From a virus (Duplodnaviria; Caudoviricetes): 64,000 bases of DNA. Both the position numbers and the translations under genes were made by a program. Position 1 is the stretch's first letter, and each line of letters opens with the position of its first letter. Shown in pieces: positions 6,732 to 36,466 of this stretch. The notes under the pieces were generated by a model. It was not told the origin of the DNA, did no database searches, and was given only the letters and a program-made list of their open reading frames with translations. The stretch lies in IMG/VR virus record IMGVR_UViG_3300005739_000025; one strand, given 5' to 3'.

Positions 6732-7859
6732 TTTGCTTTCTAGATCTTTAATTTTTAAAGATAATTCTTTAATTGATTCTATTATTAAAGGTATAATTTT
6801 TTCATATCTTACCCCGTAGTATCCATTATCTTTTAGAGTCACTGCTTCAGGTAAAACTTCTAAAATTTCTTGAGCTAAAACACCTACATCTTTACTAGGT
6901 AAATCTTTTATATTTTCTATTTTTTTATAAGTTTCATTCCAATTAAAAGTTACTCCTGAAATTTTATCTACTTTTTCTAAAGGATCTGCTATTTTAACAA
7001 TATTATCTTTTAATCTTTTATCTGATGTATTAAAAGCGGTAATATCTCCAGTTGCAGTAATATTTCCCGTTACTGCTAAACCACCATTAGAAATTGTTAA
7101 ACCACCAGCTGTTACTGTTAAACCACCAGCTGTTACTGTTAAACCACCAGCTGTTACTGTTAAACCACCAGATCCTACTGTAATATTAGAAGATGTAGAG
7201 ATGGACCCGTTTATAGAAATACCTGTATTGCCTGTATTGTTTGAAATTCTATCTATTGATAAAGCAGTTCGAATACCGGCAATTGATGTTTGACCTGTCC
7301 CCCCTCTCCCAACTGGCAAGGTACCATCCGTTAATTTATCCGTGCTTAAATTAGCAATATAAGCAGCGGCTACAGCACCAGCTGTTATTTTTCCTCCATC
7401 TATTCCCGTTGCTAGTTTTGCATTTGTAACAGTACCATCTGTTAGTTTAGCTCCATCTATTCCCGTTGCTAGTTTTGCATTTGTAACAGTACCATCTGTT
7501 AGTTTAGCTCCATCTATTCCAGAAGCAATTTTTTCATTAGTAATATTGCCATTTGTTATATTTCTTGATACCACACCATTATTAGCTATGTCTTGTTCAG
7601 TAATTGAAAATCTAGCTATTTGTCCTCCCGCAAAATTAGATCCAGATAAAGTAGCAGTTTGAATTTTATTAGCCGGCAAGGGTCTGATGGCTGCTGCTGG
7701 AATAGAGCCTGTACCAGCTTGACTTAGTAACCCCCCAAAGTTAGGATCTCTAACAAAATCGTAAACTGTTTGAGCTAAAACAACAAAATTAGTAAGTCCT
7801 GTACCTGTAATTAAATTCTGAGGATTGTTTAATGCATTTATTGAAATTTGTGTAGCCAT
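6723..7859 (-). CDS. Tail fibre protein with C-terminal peptidase S74 intramolecular chaperone
   Basis: C-terminal SDKRLKDNI...GVTFNW...GVLAQEI...GVRYEKIIPLIIESIKEL; fibre-type repeats; TAAATA 6 nt upstream of ATG. Confidence 0.8.
   Translation of the reverse strand: MATQISINALNNPQNLITGTGLTNFVVLAQTVYDFVRDPNFGGLLSQAGTGSIPAAAIRPLPANKIQTATLSGSNFAGGQIARFSITEQDIANNGVVSRNITNGNITNEKIASGIDGAKLTDGTVTNAKLATGIDGAKLTDGTVTNAKLATGIDGGKITAGAVAAAYIANLSTDKLTDGTLPVGRGGTGQTSIAGIRTALSIDRISNNTGNTGISINGSISTSSNITVGSGGLTVTAGGLTVTAGGLTVTAGGLTISNGGLAVTGNITATGDITAFNTSDKRLKDNIVKIADPLEKVDKISGVTFNWNETYKKIENIKDLPSKDVGVLAQEILEVLPEAVTLKDNGYYGVRYEKIIPLIIESIKELSLKIKDLESKLN
7095..7170. repeat. 21-bp tandem repeat (~3.6 copies; GGLTVTA) in tail fibre
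   Basis: tgttaaaccaccagctgttac units at 7095, 7116, 7137, partial at 7158. Confidence 0.9.
7394..7520. repeat. 57-bp tandem repeat (2 copies plus partial; IDGAKLTDGTVTNAKLATG) in tail fibre
   Basis: ctccatctattcc restarts at 7394, 7451, 7508. Confidence 0.9.
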
Positions 7860-12027: not shown

Positions 12028-12123
12028 TTTTAGACTAAATAAAATAGTATGACACTTTACATACAAAATAAACAATATAGAATAGAACAGCTCCTGGGCT
12101 GAGTTCTAACGTTGTTTACTTGG

Positions 12124-12156
12124 AACCCCGGCCTGTATAACAAGCCGGGGTTTTTT
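12124..12156 (+). terminator. Intrinsic terminator
   Basis: aaccccggc/gccggggtt stem followed by a T run. Confidence 0.75.
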
Positions 12157-12428
12157 ATTGATCTTTGACAATTTATAATATGAAAGAGAGGAGGTATTTA
12201 ATAGCCCAAGAAAACTTTCTTTTACTAAATCTCTTTTTACGAGGTTTACTTAAAGACTGTTCTCTGCTATTAATATAGCCAATCCCCCCATACATGCTAT
12301 AAACCAGACCAAGACCATTTGTGTAGTGGTGTGTGTTCATAACATGTATATTTATTGAAAAGATAAAGTAAATAAAGTTGAAACAAGTTTAAGATTTCTT
12401 AATACTTGTAGACATCAGTATTAAATTA

Positions 12429-17551: not shown

Positions 17552-17582
17552 AAGAGCCAGTCGAAAGACTGGCTCTTTTTTT
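17552..17582 (+). terminator. Intrinsic terminator with GAAA tetraloop
   Basis: aagagccagtc-gaaa-gactggctctt then a T run. Confidence 0.85.
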
Positions 17583-17820
17583 ACCAAAAATATATTTCGT
17601 AAGAAGATTCGTAATAAGATGGTTTATCTGGAACTAATTTATCAAAGTTAACTTTATTTCTTATTTTATAATCGTAGTCATTTATTTTTCCTTTATAAGT
17701 TAAGACTAATTCATTCTTATGACTCTCTCTATCTCCTTGCTTTTCATAAGCATAATTACCTGACACGGTACACCCAGTTAAAAATACAACTAAAACTATT
17801 TGCATTAACTTTAAATGCAT
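17581..17820 (-). CDS. Putative lipoprotein
   Basis: Lipobox FLTGC after a hydrophobic segment. Confidence 0.55.
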   Translation of the reverse strand: MHLKLMQIVLVVFLTGCTVSGNYAYEKQGDRESHKNELVLTYKGKINDYDYKIRNKVNFDKLVPDKPSYYESSYEIYFW

Positions 17821-17833
17821 CTATAATGTATTT

Positions 17834-18226
17834 ATGAACGCTAAACACCAATTCAAATACACTTTTTCAGAATCTAATATGGAAGAATTCTCTCCTGTTG
17901 AGATTACATTTGAAGTTCCAGGAGATATTACAATTCCGCAGATGTTATATAACTTCGAATCATATCTTAAAGCCTGCGGTTTTTATTTTGATGGTCATTT
18001 AGAAATTGTTGATGAGACTTTAAATAATATCGATATAGCCGATGAAGTGTATGGCTATGTGGCTGACTTTGACAAAGAGTGTGGTTGTAAGACTACTTCT
18101 AGTCCTTTAGAGAAGTTTAACGAGGATCTATCTAAGCTTGAAAAAGAAGTAAAGAAAAATAAATGGGTACACGGTATTTGTAACCCTCCTTCATCTGATT
18201 GGAAAGTAACAAATAATGGAATATAG
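17834..18226 (+). CDS. Hypothetical phage protein
   Basis: ORF with FESYLKACGFYFDG; operon with the next two ORFs. Confidence 0.55.
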   Translation: MNAKHQFKYTFSESNMEEFSPVEITFEVPGDITIPQMLYNFESYLKACGFYFDGHLEIVDETLNNIDIADEVYGYVADFDKECGCKTTSSPLEKFNEDLSKLEKEVKKNKWVHGICNPPSSDWKVTNNGI

Positions 18227-22283: not shown

Positions 22284-22558
22284 TCAAGCTTTCAAATATT
22301 AATGAGGTAGCAGATAAGCTAAAAGAACTTAAAGAGGCTGTTGCTGTTTGCCAGAAAATAGAAGATCAAGTTTCGTGGGCTTGTGACTTTACAACTTATA
22401 GAACTATATCTGATGCCTTAGAGCCTATTTATGAGGCTGTAGATAGTGCAAAAGATTCAATTAATCAAGAAATAAATTATATTGAAGATCGTTTAGAAGA
22501 TTACAAGTGCAAACTTGATATTTTTGAACACGAAAATAAGATAGAAGTAAACGATTGA
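22280..22558 (+). CDS. Hypothetical coiled-coil protein
   Basis: ORF coupled to both neighbours. Confidence 0.5.
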   Translation: MIKLSNINEVADKLKELKEAVAVCQKIEDQVSWACDFTTYRTISDALEPIYEAVDSAKDSINQEINYIEDRLEDYKCKLDIFEHENKIEVND

Positions 22559-23634
22559 GTATATGTCTTAACATGATTGTTAAGGATGAATCTAAAAACA
22601 TCCTTAGATGTTTAGATTCAGTCTCACCCTATATAAACTATTGGGTAATTTGCGATACAGGTTCAAGCGATAATACAGTTGAAACTATTAAGAACTACTT
22701 TAACCAGAAAAATATTCCAGGAGAGATTCATGGTCATGGTTGGGTAAATTTTGGAGTTAATAGAAATTTAGCTTTAGAGTTAGCAAAAGATAAAGCGGAT
22801 TATATATTGCTTTGTGATGCTGATATGGAAATGGTAGTTAATCAACCAGATTTCTTTTCTAATATTAATAGCTATGGTTTTGATGAAGCTACTATTATTC
22901 AGGAATCTGATCATTTATCATATCACAACATAAGAATTGTAAGCGGTAAGAAAGATTTCAATTATGTTGGTCCTACTCATGAGTATATAACCGCTAAATT
23001 CAAAGATGTAAACAGATTAGATATAGATAAATCTGTACTATATTTCAAGGATCATGCTTCAGGATTTAATAGAACAAACAAATTTCAAAGAGACATAGAG
23101 TTGTTGGAAAACGAGCTGCTAAAGTTTCCATCCAATCAAAGATATAGATTTTACCTGGCCCAAAGCTACAGAGATAACAACGATAAAGATAACGCCATTG
23201 CCAATTACAAAAAGGTTCTTTATTGTAATGGCTATGTTCAAGAGAAGTACATATCTTGTTTAAATTTAGGTAGATTATATAAAGATAAAGGAGAAAAAGA
23301 ATTAGCAGTCTTTTACTACTTAAAATCTATAGAGTTTGATAGTTCTAGAATAGAGTGTATGGTAGAGGCTACAACTATTCTTAGAGAATTAAATCAACAT
23401 AATTTGGTTTGTTTGCTCTATGATAGATATAAAAATTACTCTAAAAATATACAGCACGCATTATTTCTAGAGCCAAAACTATATAATAACGAGCTTGAAT
23501 TTAATTTTTCAATTTCAGCCTTTTATGTTAATAGAAAGGAAGAAGGTTTACAAGCTATTAAAAAAATACTTGAATCTCCAGATAGTTCAGATCATATTAG
23601 ATTTTTAAGTGAAAAAAACTTGAAATTTTTTTAA
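22555..23634 (+). CDS. Glycosyltransferase family 2 with TPR-like C-terminal region
   Basis: ICLNMIVKDE...CLDS...CDTGSSDNT, LLCDAD (DxD), THE, RYRFYLAQSY. Confidence 0.85.
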   Translation: MSICLNMIVKDESKNILRCLDSVSPYINYWVICDTGSSDNTVETIKNYFNQKNIPGEIHGHGWVNFGVNRNLALELAKDKADYILLCDADMEMVVNQPDFFSNINSYGFDEATIIQESDHLSYHNIRIVSGKKDFNYVGPTHEYITAKFKDVNRLDIDKSVLYFKDHASGFNRTNKFQRDIELLENELLKFPSNQRYRFYLAQSYRDNNDKDNAIANYKKVLYCNGYVQEKYISCLNLGRLYKDKGEKELAVFYYLKSIEFDSSRIECMVEATTILRELNQHNLVCLLYDRYKNYSKNIQHALFLEPKLYNNELEFNFSISAFYVNRKEEGLQAIKKILESPDSSDHIRFLSEKNLKFF

Positions 23635-23691
23635 AATTTTAGTTGAGGTTCCTTAGAAAGACTATATATTAATAGAAGTTCTTTGACATTT

Positions 23692-24070
23692 AAGGGGGTA
23701 GCAGATAGCCGGTTGAGTCGTGCACTGCTTTAAACTGATCTTGACTCGATCAAGCCTTCTTAACAACGGTAAGGTATGGTGTTTAACGTCCCTAACAAAA
23801 TGTATCACCTTATAAATGGTATGCGAACTCTACCACTCTTAAGATCTAAAGAGTCTTCACAGTAAGATAAGCCGCAACAGGCTAAAAAATAGAGCGTGTC
23901 GGTTCTAGGTAAGTACCAAGCCGAAGACTATAGATGGTCAAAAACCTATGTAAAATACGGTTAGGTGTTCTTCGAGTGAGTGTATAAAAATATGCTAGGC
24001 ATTACTCACTCGATACCAGATAAGGCGCAACTTAATCTGGTCCGAAGTGCGATAAAAACACCCAATTTTC
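23692..24070 (+). ncRNA. Candidate large structured non-coding RNA, family unassigned
   Basis: No ORF; several helices visible (tcgagtgagt/actcactcga, ccagataag/cttaatctgg, actctt/aagagt, gagtc/gactc, agcc/ggct); boxA-like gttctttgacat immediately upstream. Confidence 0.55.
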
Positions 24071-24469
24071 CATGCATAGATTAGCTTATTCAATTCTAGC
24101 GTTTTTATTTGGATTCTGGTTATGTGAATTCATAATTAGTTTATTCTTGAAGAAAGATAAAATTCCTTTAGAATAAGAATATGAAAGTAAAACCAGCTTA
24201 CATGTCATTAATGATTTCCTTTGCACTATTTGCTATTTTAGTCTATCTTGTTAGTAGACTTTAATATGACTCAGGAAGAAAAAATATATCAACTTCGCGC
24301 TCTTCTCTCTTACATTAATATGAGAGTAGGGGAGTTTTATAGTATGGGACTCTACAATAACAACCCGACTAGAAAAGAACTATTCTTTATTCTTAAAGAT
24401 ATAAAAAAAACATTAGAACAGACAAGTAATTAATTGCATTTTTATTAAAGTTCCTACATACTTTTAACA

Positions 24470-24715
24470 ATGAAAGAGCTAAACAAATTAAGGGAAGAAG
24501 TAGCTGATCAAGAATTACATAAATATGATTTTTATGGGTACGTAGAGGATTCCAGTAATTGGGTAAAAGATGGAGATGTGTGGTCCTGTAAGGTCTATCT
24601 TGAAAATGAAGATGAGTATGAAGAAGAGGGAACTACTATTCCTTATTCCTTTACAGTATTTTTCGAAGAAGGTACCACCGAGGTTGAGTCTGTAGAATCA
24701 GAGTGTTTAGCTTAA
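24470..24715 (+). CDS. Small acidic early-type protein
   Basis: AGTTCC-ta-CATACT 7 nt before ATG; E/D-rich. Confidence 0.55.
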   Translation: MKELNKLREEVADQELHKYDFYGYVEDSSNWVKDGDVWSCKVYLENEDEYEEEGTTIPYSFTVFFEEGTTEVESVESECLA

Positions 24716-25213
24716 TGGCAAAATATAAAAAAGATTTTCAAACTATAATCTACAAAGGTTATAAAATAGAACAAGTTATTAATCACAATCCTTATCTTTT
24801 CTATGGAGGATATGGTTATCCTGAGAATCACCCTAAGCGTAGATATATGAAACCTATATACGCTGTTCAATGGGCTGATAAGAAGGAAGGTTATTGTTAC
24901 GAAACATACTACTATACTTCTTTAGTTGCCGCAAAGAGAATGATAAATTTTACTGTTAATCGCAATAAGGTCCCTGCATAATATTAACAATGACGAAATA
25001 CGATATTAATTCCCAAGTGGAAGAGTACTTTGGTACATTTGCTGCTGAACCTGCTAATGAAGACATGGTCAGTCTTAGCAGCTATTCTATTGAAGAATAC
25101 GAAGAGTATATTTCAAAAGAATCCCAAGAAAATAGTGAAATTTAATTTAGTTGCTGTTCCTATAAGGTTCCTGTACAATATTTACATAATCAAGAAAGGA
25201 GGTGAAACAAATA

Positions 25214-25546
25214 ATGGAAAACGTTATCAAAGTCGAGCGTAAGAACGGTAAGATCGTTCGTCAGACCGAAGGTAAACGCCGTGGACGCCCTAGTGGTTCT
25301 GGCAACCCTTCGCTTAAGTTGACCTGCTTGGTCACGGGTAAGTCCCGTGCTACCAATCAGAAGTATCTCCAGGCTAAGGCTGATCGTTTGGGCGTTACTG
25401 TTGACGAAATCGTTAACAACTATGTCTCTAAGGACGGTCTCAAGCAGATGGATACTTTCAATCACGCTAACAAAGAGTTGCTACGTCGTATCAATGGTGG
25501 AACTCGCATTAGCTCTGAGAAGGTCGCTGTTGCTAAAGCTGCTTAA
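25214..25546 (+). CDS. Basic putative DNA-binding protein with AT-hook-like RRGRPS
   Basis: Strong SD AGGAGGT at 25197-25203; GGTTCC-tg-TACAAT upstream; start moved to ATG 25214. Confidence 0.6.
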   Translation: MENVIKVERKNGKIVRQTEGKRRGRPSGSGNPSLKLTCLVTGKSRATNQKYLQAKADRLGVTVDEIVNNYVSKDGLKQMDTFNHANKELLRRINGGTRISSEKVAVAKAA

Positions 25547-25738
25547 TCAATAGAGCGTCTCCAGTTCAATCCTGCAGACGCTTCTATCTTATGAAAAAAC
25601 AAATTCAAAAACAATTAAAGTTTGCTTCTAAACTCTTACAAGAAATTTCCCGGGAACATAAAAAGGGAAACTACTATAGGTTTGGTTATTTGGCATATGA
25701 TGTTCAATTAAAAGAGTACGAAAGACTTAAAGCATTAT

Positions 25739-35475: not shown

Positions 35476-36466
35476 CAGTTCCGCTATACTGATAGGTGAT
35501 GAATAAGAAAACGTTCAAGTTCGAGGTCAGCTTTAACCTCAACCTAGCCAAAGGAGAGAAGCTCGACACAACGTCGATCCGCTCTTTTCAGACCCAGCTC
35601 TTCAATTTCGTCCAGGAGTGGAATGGCAATAACGGCTACTTCTATGGCTATGACTCCATCTACGGCGATAGAGACATCGACCCTACCGCCATCAAGGTTA
35701 AAAGGCTTGTCAGCCGCTAAGCTTCCTGCATAATAATTGTATGATCAATAACATCATCCAGTACATCAAAGACGTTAAGCATACGATGAGCTATAGCACC
35801 ACCGATGACATCATCTGGATCTATATGCCATTGGTCGTTATGATAGCGACGGTGTCGTTTGCTATCTGCTCTATCATCTTCACCATCCTTTAATATGACC
35901 GAACAACAACTCATCACAATGATAGCCGTTATGTCATGGCTGTCCGAACAATCACTCCAAGTCAAAGTCTGGAACAACTAATATGTCATTCGACGTCGAT
36001 ACACTCAAGCACACAAACGTACTTAATGTTGATCAGCTCTATCAAGACTATCCTCTTGGATCGATTGATGACCTCAATCCATCTGATGATAAAGAAGAGC
36101 TGAGACATATTGAGCTATTGTCTAAAGAAGTACTCAGTGAAGAAGAGGCCCAGGAGCTGGACCTCCTAACGGACAAGTTTATTAACGATCTGAATGATCG
36201 GGTAAGTAAGATAGTCTTCTGAGACGCACATGATGTGGTGATGGATAGCTAGAGGGTGTGGTCTAGCTATAGAGGTGGGTGGGGTGCTAGAGACTGTGGT
36301 GGTTCTCTAGCACCCCCGTGTGTCTAGAGAGCAGCACGGCTATAGAGGCTAAGGACGGAAATTTGCTCTATATAGAGAACAGGGTCTTAAACTTGGGTTC
36401 CCATGCTTCCGCGCGGGTGCAAATTTTTCGTGCTAAAATCAGCTATATGGAACTTAGACCGGAGTA

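Follow-up and report, generated by a model that had tools for sequence, protein, structure and literature searches.

An island of raised GC content, free of open reading frames and lying between genes rather than within one, runs directly into the start codon of a conserved 34-codon ORF in the DNA of an uncultured large T4-like phage, and we suggest, with a probability of roughly 40%, that this island is the long structured 5' leader of that small gene. All positions given below are those of the window, by which we mean the whole 64,000-nt stretch of phage DNA that was analysed. In the mechanism that we have in mind, the island (~23680-24071) would be transcribed on the plus strand as untranslated RNA, and its functional core would be formed by the 3' ~225 nt, comprising a branched domain (23844-23935), two stem-loops (23972-24041) and a conserved 24-nt linker. 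The RNA would then run directly into the AUG (24072) of a conserved 34-codon membrane-peptide gene, and the leader would set translation and/or stability of the small-peptide message, a likely route being that the start region is masked or freed by folding, or that the RNA provides a binding or processing site. Any role of the 5' 150 nt is something that we infer.

Several lines of evidence lead us to this reading: there is no terminator between the island and the ORFs that follow, though the phage has canonical terminators elsewhere; the 3' edge of the island coincides with the AUG of an ORF for which two homologues are known; the segment 24001-24071 is conserved in a relative, where comparison with its protein P0247 indicates one change that keeps a G-U pair and one pair altered on both sides; GC content is uniform across the island, with sharp edges and AT-rich flanks; and the region 23839-24070 is locally stable, its middle domain favouring the plus strand. 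If the reading is correct, a tiny membrane-peptide gene would once more prove to be under RNA-level control in a large phage, a useful result though hardly a surprising one. The features concerned are the following.

22555-23634, 5' neighbour of the island: family-2 glycosyltransferase with TPR repeats
23643-23670, plus strand: sigma-70-like promoter match TTGAGG-16-TATATT (9 of 12 positions matching), a weak candidate for the start of the untranslated RNA
23680-24071, plus strand: GC-enriched, ORF-free island, a candidate untranslated RNA, delimited by GC bins and by ORF and coding scans
23690-23838, plus strand: 5' part of the island, which folds like shuffled sequence (z -0.58 on the plus strand, -0.40 on the minus strand)
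23844-23935, plus strand: middle branched domain, with predicted closing helices 23844-48/23931-35 and 23852-58/23923-29
23959-24067, plus strand: 3' domain, with hairpins 1 and 2 and a predicted closing helix 23964-69/24057-62
24001-24071, plus strand: segment conserved in a relative on indirect evidence (hairpin 2, with the 3' strand of hairpin 1 before it and the linker to the start codon after it)
24072-24176, plus strand: ORF of 34 codons, with two homologues, whose small hydrophobic product has a charged tail
24181-24264, plus strand: possible tiny hydrophobic ORF of 27 codons and uncertain status (low coding score, not in the public protein collection)
24266-24433, plus strand: 55-codon ORF (P0243), found on four contigs, the longest of 244,006 bp

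Contigs that encode proteins of the source phage reach 244,006 bp, and among cultured phages the closest to it are T4-like cyanophages and pelagiphages, with a protein identity of ~25%. Beyond the 3' end of the island lie very small ORFs, and the first ORF past the glycosyltransferase that is present in the public protein collection is the one at 24266-24433. A tRNA array comes to an end 6.7 kb upstream of the island.

That the stretch contains no ORF, as the preliminary description had it, is borne out by every approach that we applied. The longest stop-free frame, on the minus strand, has 55 codons, and 23635-24241 is the longest stretch in the 64-kb window without a stop-free frame of at least 60 codons, the remaining stretches of this kind being tRNA sites. 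Trained on 27 long ORFs of the window, a codon-usage score stays below zero in every frame between ~23600 and 24450. None of the nine small ORFs within 23662-24264 is present in the public protein collection, and neither the six read-through frames of the island, when searched against Pfam and PHROG, nor a comparison of the stretch with 242 fetched proteins (glycosyltransferase, DUF6267 and others) revealed any protein remnant. We therefore reject two explanations that would derive the island from coding sequence, namely a decayed C-terminal extension of the glycosyltransferase and a pseudogene from any of the families in Pfam or PHROG. The contrast in base composition with the flanks, which had likewise been remarked upon, also holds up: GC content is 0.38-0.47 in each 40-nt bin between 23680 and 24080 and 0.12-0.30 in both flanks. 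Note that a GC content of 0.40 is ordinary for the window overall (mean 0.34, standard deviation 0.07). The island is thus non-coding and has a compositional boundary on each side; an unconstrained spacer in this genome would be expected to be AT-rich.

Turning to signals for transcription, sigma-70-like promoter matches around the stretch occur at chance frequency and are not enriched over shuffled sequence. No intrinsic terminator was found in 23300-24500, and canonical ones are present elsewhere in the phage, at 12123-12160 and 17552-17577. Given that a terminator is absent near the island, we read the stretch as part of a longer plus-strand transcription unit and not as a self-contained gene. 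A boxA-like 12-mer ahead of the stretch had been taken as a possible sign of a stable RNA, but there are six near-matches to it in the window (at most two mismatches) against 9.0 expected, and a boxA site of the kind that serves rrn-type antitermination is rejected, its matches being at chance level. T4 late-promoter motifs are rejected on the same grounds, the octamers likewise occurring at chance level. Two observations on such signals in other parts of the window may be recorded here. Octamers of the form TATAAATR at 7857, 8850, 56900, 58700 and 61984 often stand 5-13 nt before the start codons of larger genes, and the motif overall is no commoner in the window than chance would have it. 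The site at 17552-17577 is a strong 11-bp GC-rich hairpin with a terminator score on both strands, the only strong site of this sort between 11.5 and 31 kb.

The start codon of the 34-codon ORF lies directly where the GC island stops. The public protein collection does not contain this ORF as such, but two homologues are known: P0246 (35 aa), which shares its start and is 71% identical (E 1.3e-8), and P0247 (67 aa), the last 34 residues of which align with it at 76% identity (E 1.8e-8). The peptide, which matches no Pfam or PHROG family, consists of a single hydrophobic helix and a charged tail, and 24072-24176 is likely to be an unannotated small membrane-peptide gene. P0247 is of further use, for its extra 33 N-terminal residues, the product of an over-extended ORF call, correspond to the DNA that precedes the ORF in the relative and so provide an indirect view of the RNA that adjoins the start codon. 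Residues ...YTQSMPAKAQLKLVR of P0247 match the window frame 23980-24084 (...ITHSIPDKAQLNLVR), and the residues that come next, CDKNTRFS, match the window's other frame (CDKNTQFS), which leads into the AUG. This switch of frame implies that the two phages differ by a 1-nt indel at 24046-47, which speaks against translation of the segment into a conserved protein. Deducing the nucleotide differences that the P0247 protein forces (it comes from a 673-bp contig, the alignment is assumed and third-codon bases are unseen), we count 7 in 69 nt of the segment 24001-24071 and 11 in 102 nt of the ORF. Since a substitution in a frame without selection on the protein usually alters a residue, the untranslated segment would appear to be about as conserved as the ORF itself. 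Three of the forced changes fall into hairpin 2. One of them, A24015 to G, retains the predicted pair with U24041 as G-U, on the plus strand only; the other two, A24020 to C and U24036 to A or G, affect both sides of one predicted pair, which would become either C-G, a compensatory change, or C-A. These changes are compatible with the pairing of hairpin 2 and, at this level of resolution, suggestive.

How well does the island fold? Taken as a whole, the 391-nt stretch has a minimum free energy (MFE) z-score, computed against dinucleotide shuffles, of -2.78 on the plus and -1.06 on the minus strand. Across consecutive 390-nt segments of the 64 kb, however, the plus-strand mean is -0.68 (standard deviation 1.31), and 7% reach -2.78, so that the global value is not exceptional for this genome. 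A more differentiated picture emerges when the island is considered in parts. In the 5' part, helices are predicted at 23711-20/23742-51 and, over a long range, at 23690-701/23830-842, with pair probabilities of ~0.9 in one context; the long-range helix and the actctt/aagagt hairpin share bases and alternate between folds. The middle domain encloses hairpins at 23870-73/23880-83, 23890-95/23902-07 and 23908-10/23915-17; here MFE and centroid structures are equal, the domain recurs in a 435-nt fold, and 23839-23954 has a z-score of -2.88 on the plus strand (none of 200 shuffles being as stable) versus -1.26 on the minus strand. The 3' domain holds hairpin 1 (23972-82/24003-13, including a perfect 10-bp helix, 23972-81/24004-13) and hairpin 2 (24015-24/24031-41). 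For 23955-24070, z-scores are -3.76 on the plus and -4.58 on the minus strand, the two hairpins being equally stable on both.

To place these values we scanned the first ~26 kb of the window in 453 segments of 116 nt. Within this sample 23955-24070 ranks sixth and two neighbouring segments are in the top 4%, the local stability of 23839-24070 falling into the top ~1-4%. Note that comparable clusters of scores also occur within coding sequence, for example at 22505-22852. The 3' part of the island is thus locally fold-stable; the ORF downstream of it is conserved, and so, on the indirect evidence above, are the last ~70 nt of the island. For the helices named in the preliminary description, this means that those at 23972-81/24004-13, 24015-24/24031-41, 23711-20/23742-51 and 23870-73/23880-83 are recovered, and that the long-range pairing, 23690-23701/23830-23842, competes with actctt/aagagt. 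Its portrayal of the whole as a multi-helix region is reasonable for ~23844-24067 and unsupported for the first 150 nt (z -0.58).

The stretch belongs to no RNA family that we could recognise. With Rfam 15 at gathering thresholds, the whole window yields tRNAs only, and cmscan of 1 kb with lax filters and E-values up to 10 gives just four short matches at chance level. The Infernal comparison with Rfam that the preliminary description had recommended therefore ends without a family for the stretch, and its remark that hallmarks of tmRNA, RNase P and group I introns are not recognisable agrees with the negative results from the Rfam models and ARAGORN. Specifically, the models for GOLLD, ROOL, OLE and raiA (Rfam 15) do not score at threshold on the stretch, the catalytic cores of group I and group II introns and of RNase P RNA find no Rfam match in it, ARAGORN reports no tmRNA there, and neither a T-arm nor a CCA end is visible in its sequence. 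A frame from GCC GAA GAC... to UAG can be read at 23920-23964, but the typical end of a tag and a supporting structure are absent, and tmRNA is rejected given that there is neither an RF00023 match at E-values up to 10 nor an ARAGORN call. A positive control for the RF00023 model is provided by a complete relative (G008, an IMG/VR contig of 229,717 bp), which carries a full-length tmRNA of 404 nt (87 bits) on the minus strand at 197,801-198,204 (positions 17801-18204 of locus L171). Its tag is unusually long, with 33 residues from AEDNFDM... to ...ELELV, and it was missed by the ARAGORN run on that genome. Large RNA genes, in other words, do occur in this phage group. Between the tmRNA of the relative and the stretch there is no similarity.

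Searches for DNA homologues of the stretch were negative throughout. This applies to blastn against 50,697 phage records and against plasmids, to blastn and nhmmer against 80 glycosyltransferase loci and against 78 related-phage loci found by DUF6267 alignment, and to BLAST against five whole records (G006-G010), the complete 229,717-bp relative included. An exact 19-mer from the 5' end of the RNA was not found in IMG/VR; the duplicated motif GATAAGSCGCAAC...GATAAGSCGCAAC is absent from IMG/VR and has three chance matches in GTDB genomes, all in high-GC bacteria. A covariance model built from the single sequence 23690-23842 recovered nothing but that sequence when run over 1.09 Mb of DNA from related phages. 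Relatives of the locus were sought by other routes as well, and none was found in IMG/VR by single-protein searches with the TPR glycosyltransferase, DUF6267 and P0122, in metagenomes with alignment A1, or in IMG/VR, metagenomes and GTDB with the peptide pattern YEEEGTTIP. Five IMG/VR contigs of ~250 kb with a glycosyltransferase proved unrelated. Relatives of individual genes do exist: P0002 is 56% identical to the glycosyltransferase, P0122 (on contigs of up to 119,772 bp) is 60% identical to an 81-codon ORF further downstream, and contigs that encode P0246 (four from JGI, the longest of 7.6 kb), P0247 (ENA), P0122 and P0002 (JGI, 6,562 bp) are present in public metagenomes.

The closest relative examined over the syntenic interval, G006 (DUF6267 identity 64%), has a block of minus-strand ORFs in place of glycosyltransferase, island and 81-codon ORF (22555-24715 of the window), all three of which are missing there, and from this we conclude that the locus lies in a variable (hyperplastic) region. 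Regions of this type in T4-type phages harbour PeSLs, short repeated cassettes of promoter and stem-loop (PMC2839356, PMC4122927). The island resembles these in its setting, a variable region of a T4-like phage, and in combining a promoter-like site with stem-loops, but it is far longer and unrepeated: no part of the stretch has a further copy in the 64-kb window, the best match being one of 19 nt (E 0.03), and a PeSL repeat is rejected for want of a second copy there.

There are a number of other ways in which the island might be explained. The preliminary description had proposed a novel large non-coding RNA, and much of what that claim rests on survives, in that the stretch is non-coding, compositionally distinct, without an Rfam family and, in its 3' part, indirectly conserved; what did not emerge, given ordinary fold stability and a 5' 150 nt free of signal, is an ornate RNA of 370 nt, and no terminator was found that would delimit a separate RNA gene. 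Imagine nonetheless a stand-alone, trans-acting stable RNA of an undescribed class, excised from a longer transcript and protected at its end by the two 3' hairpins. Such an RNA would account for the sharp-edged GC island, the branched and strand-asymmetric middle domain and the failure of any known family to match; a relative does carry a tmRNA, and large phage RNAs without an assigned function exist, GOLLD and ROOL being ornate examples from phages and prophages (PMC12286853). We nevertheless regard it as unlikely. It would require both release by processing and conservation of the 5' half, and it has to contend with the lack of a terminator, the unexceptional stability of the fold, a 5' 40% without signal, the absence of the island from the syntenic interval in G006, and searches of 50,697 phage records, IMG/VR patterns, related-phage loci and one complete related genome without a homologue. 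Compared with GOLLD and ROOL (PMC12286853), the island is likewise phage-encoded, gene-free, hundreds of nucleotides long and situated in a tRNA-rich genome, but it is shorter, matches neither model, lies 6.7 kb from the nearest tRNA gene and is not outstanding in fold stability. In its fullest form, with the whole ~390-nt island a new-class RNA confined to one freshwater T4-like phage lineage, whose target in trans might be, for example, the translation machinery of the host, the proposal seems to us doubtful; if true, this lineage would gain an orphan class of RNA that is new. Descent from a large RNA that is already known, be it tmRNA, RNase P RNA, a group I or II intron, GOLLD or ROOL, in divergent or degenerate form, is far less probable still. 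The length of ~390 nt is close to that of a tmRNA, the sequence starts with GGGGG, and the tmRNA of the relative, at 404 nt, is of similar size, but no Rfam match appears even with lax filters up to E 10, ARAGORN is negative, the island has no RF00023 match, tRNA-like domain or visible T-arm or CCA end, and nothing in it resembles the G008 tmRNA. That the island belongs to any large RNA family already described is all but excluded.

One might also suppose that the island is mostly non-functional DNA of a variable region, such as a decayed acquired fragment, of which the last ~100 nt hold ordinary inter-gene signals, that is, processing or stabilising hairpins and a translation start region. 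This is about equally likely as a stand-alone RNA, and thus no favourite. It sits well with the absence of island, glycosyltransferase and 81-codon ORF alike from G006's syntenic interval, with a 5' part that folds like shuffled sequence and with a GC content of 0.40 being common elsewhere in the window. Against it, no frame bears any trace of a protein family, stop-free frames are not longer than expected at random, the raised GC content is uniform over all 400 nt, and the middle domain is stable in a strand-specific manner. A more speculative variation on the theme of a leader is a type I toxin-antitoxin-like arrangement, in which the 34-codon peptide would be a membrane toxin silenced by the folded leader together with an antisense RNA from the minus strand. 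The shape of the peptide, with its hydrophobic helix and charged tail, fits, the peptide is conserved, a long folded leader adjoins its AUG, promoter-like sites are found on the minus strand at 24292-24263 and 23954-23927, and the minus strand of 24070-24270 folds with a z-score of -2.33. Against this, the peptide matches no toxin family, the promoter matches are at chance level, and T4-like phages commonly encode small membrane peptides for other reasons; we consider this sub-case improbable.

The structured 5' leader, which we prefer, has its own difficulties: ~390 nt is long for a 34-codon gene, the 5' 150 nt carry no fold signal, the stability of the whole region is ordinary for the genome, the promoter match is without statistical weight, and the minus strand would form the two hairpins with equal stability. 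Moreover, that the RNA adjoins the AUG of a conserved small ORF is as compatible with a leader as with a stand-alone RNA. Structured leaders and translational operators are familiar from the T4 gene 32 leader and from the long folded leaders of the hok and tisB small-peptide mRNAs. Like these, the island would be a folded untranslated RNA extending up to the start codon of a small gene, with stable hairpins, a possible closing helix near the start region and a conserved segment adjoining the AUG; it differs in being long (~390 nt, with a structured core of ~225 nt) and in having no sequence relation to leaders described so far.

Some further observations concern other stretches in the window and in its relatives. 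The complete relative has two gene-free stretches of 308 and 241 nt, both with a GC content of 0.39 (95,287-95,594, locus L166, and 218,808-219,048, locus L172), which match no Rfam family and show no similarity to the island. A peak in GC content of up to 0.54 at 25151-25625 of the window coincides with an ORF at 25202-25546 that has homologues in G006 (44%) and G008 (40%), and is therefore attributed to a protein gene and not to a second RNA candidate. Finally, a perfect 13-bp inverted repeat is present at 36281-36316 (GGGGTGCTAGAGA / TCTCTAGCACCCC, with a loop of 10 nt), the sole perfect one among the 25 longest listed.
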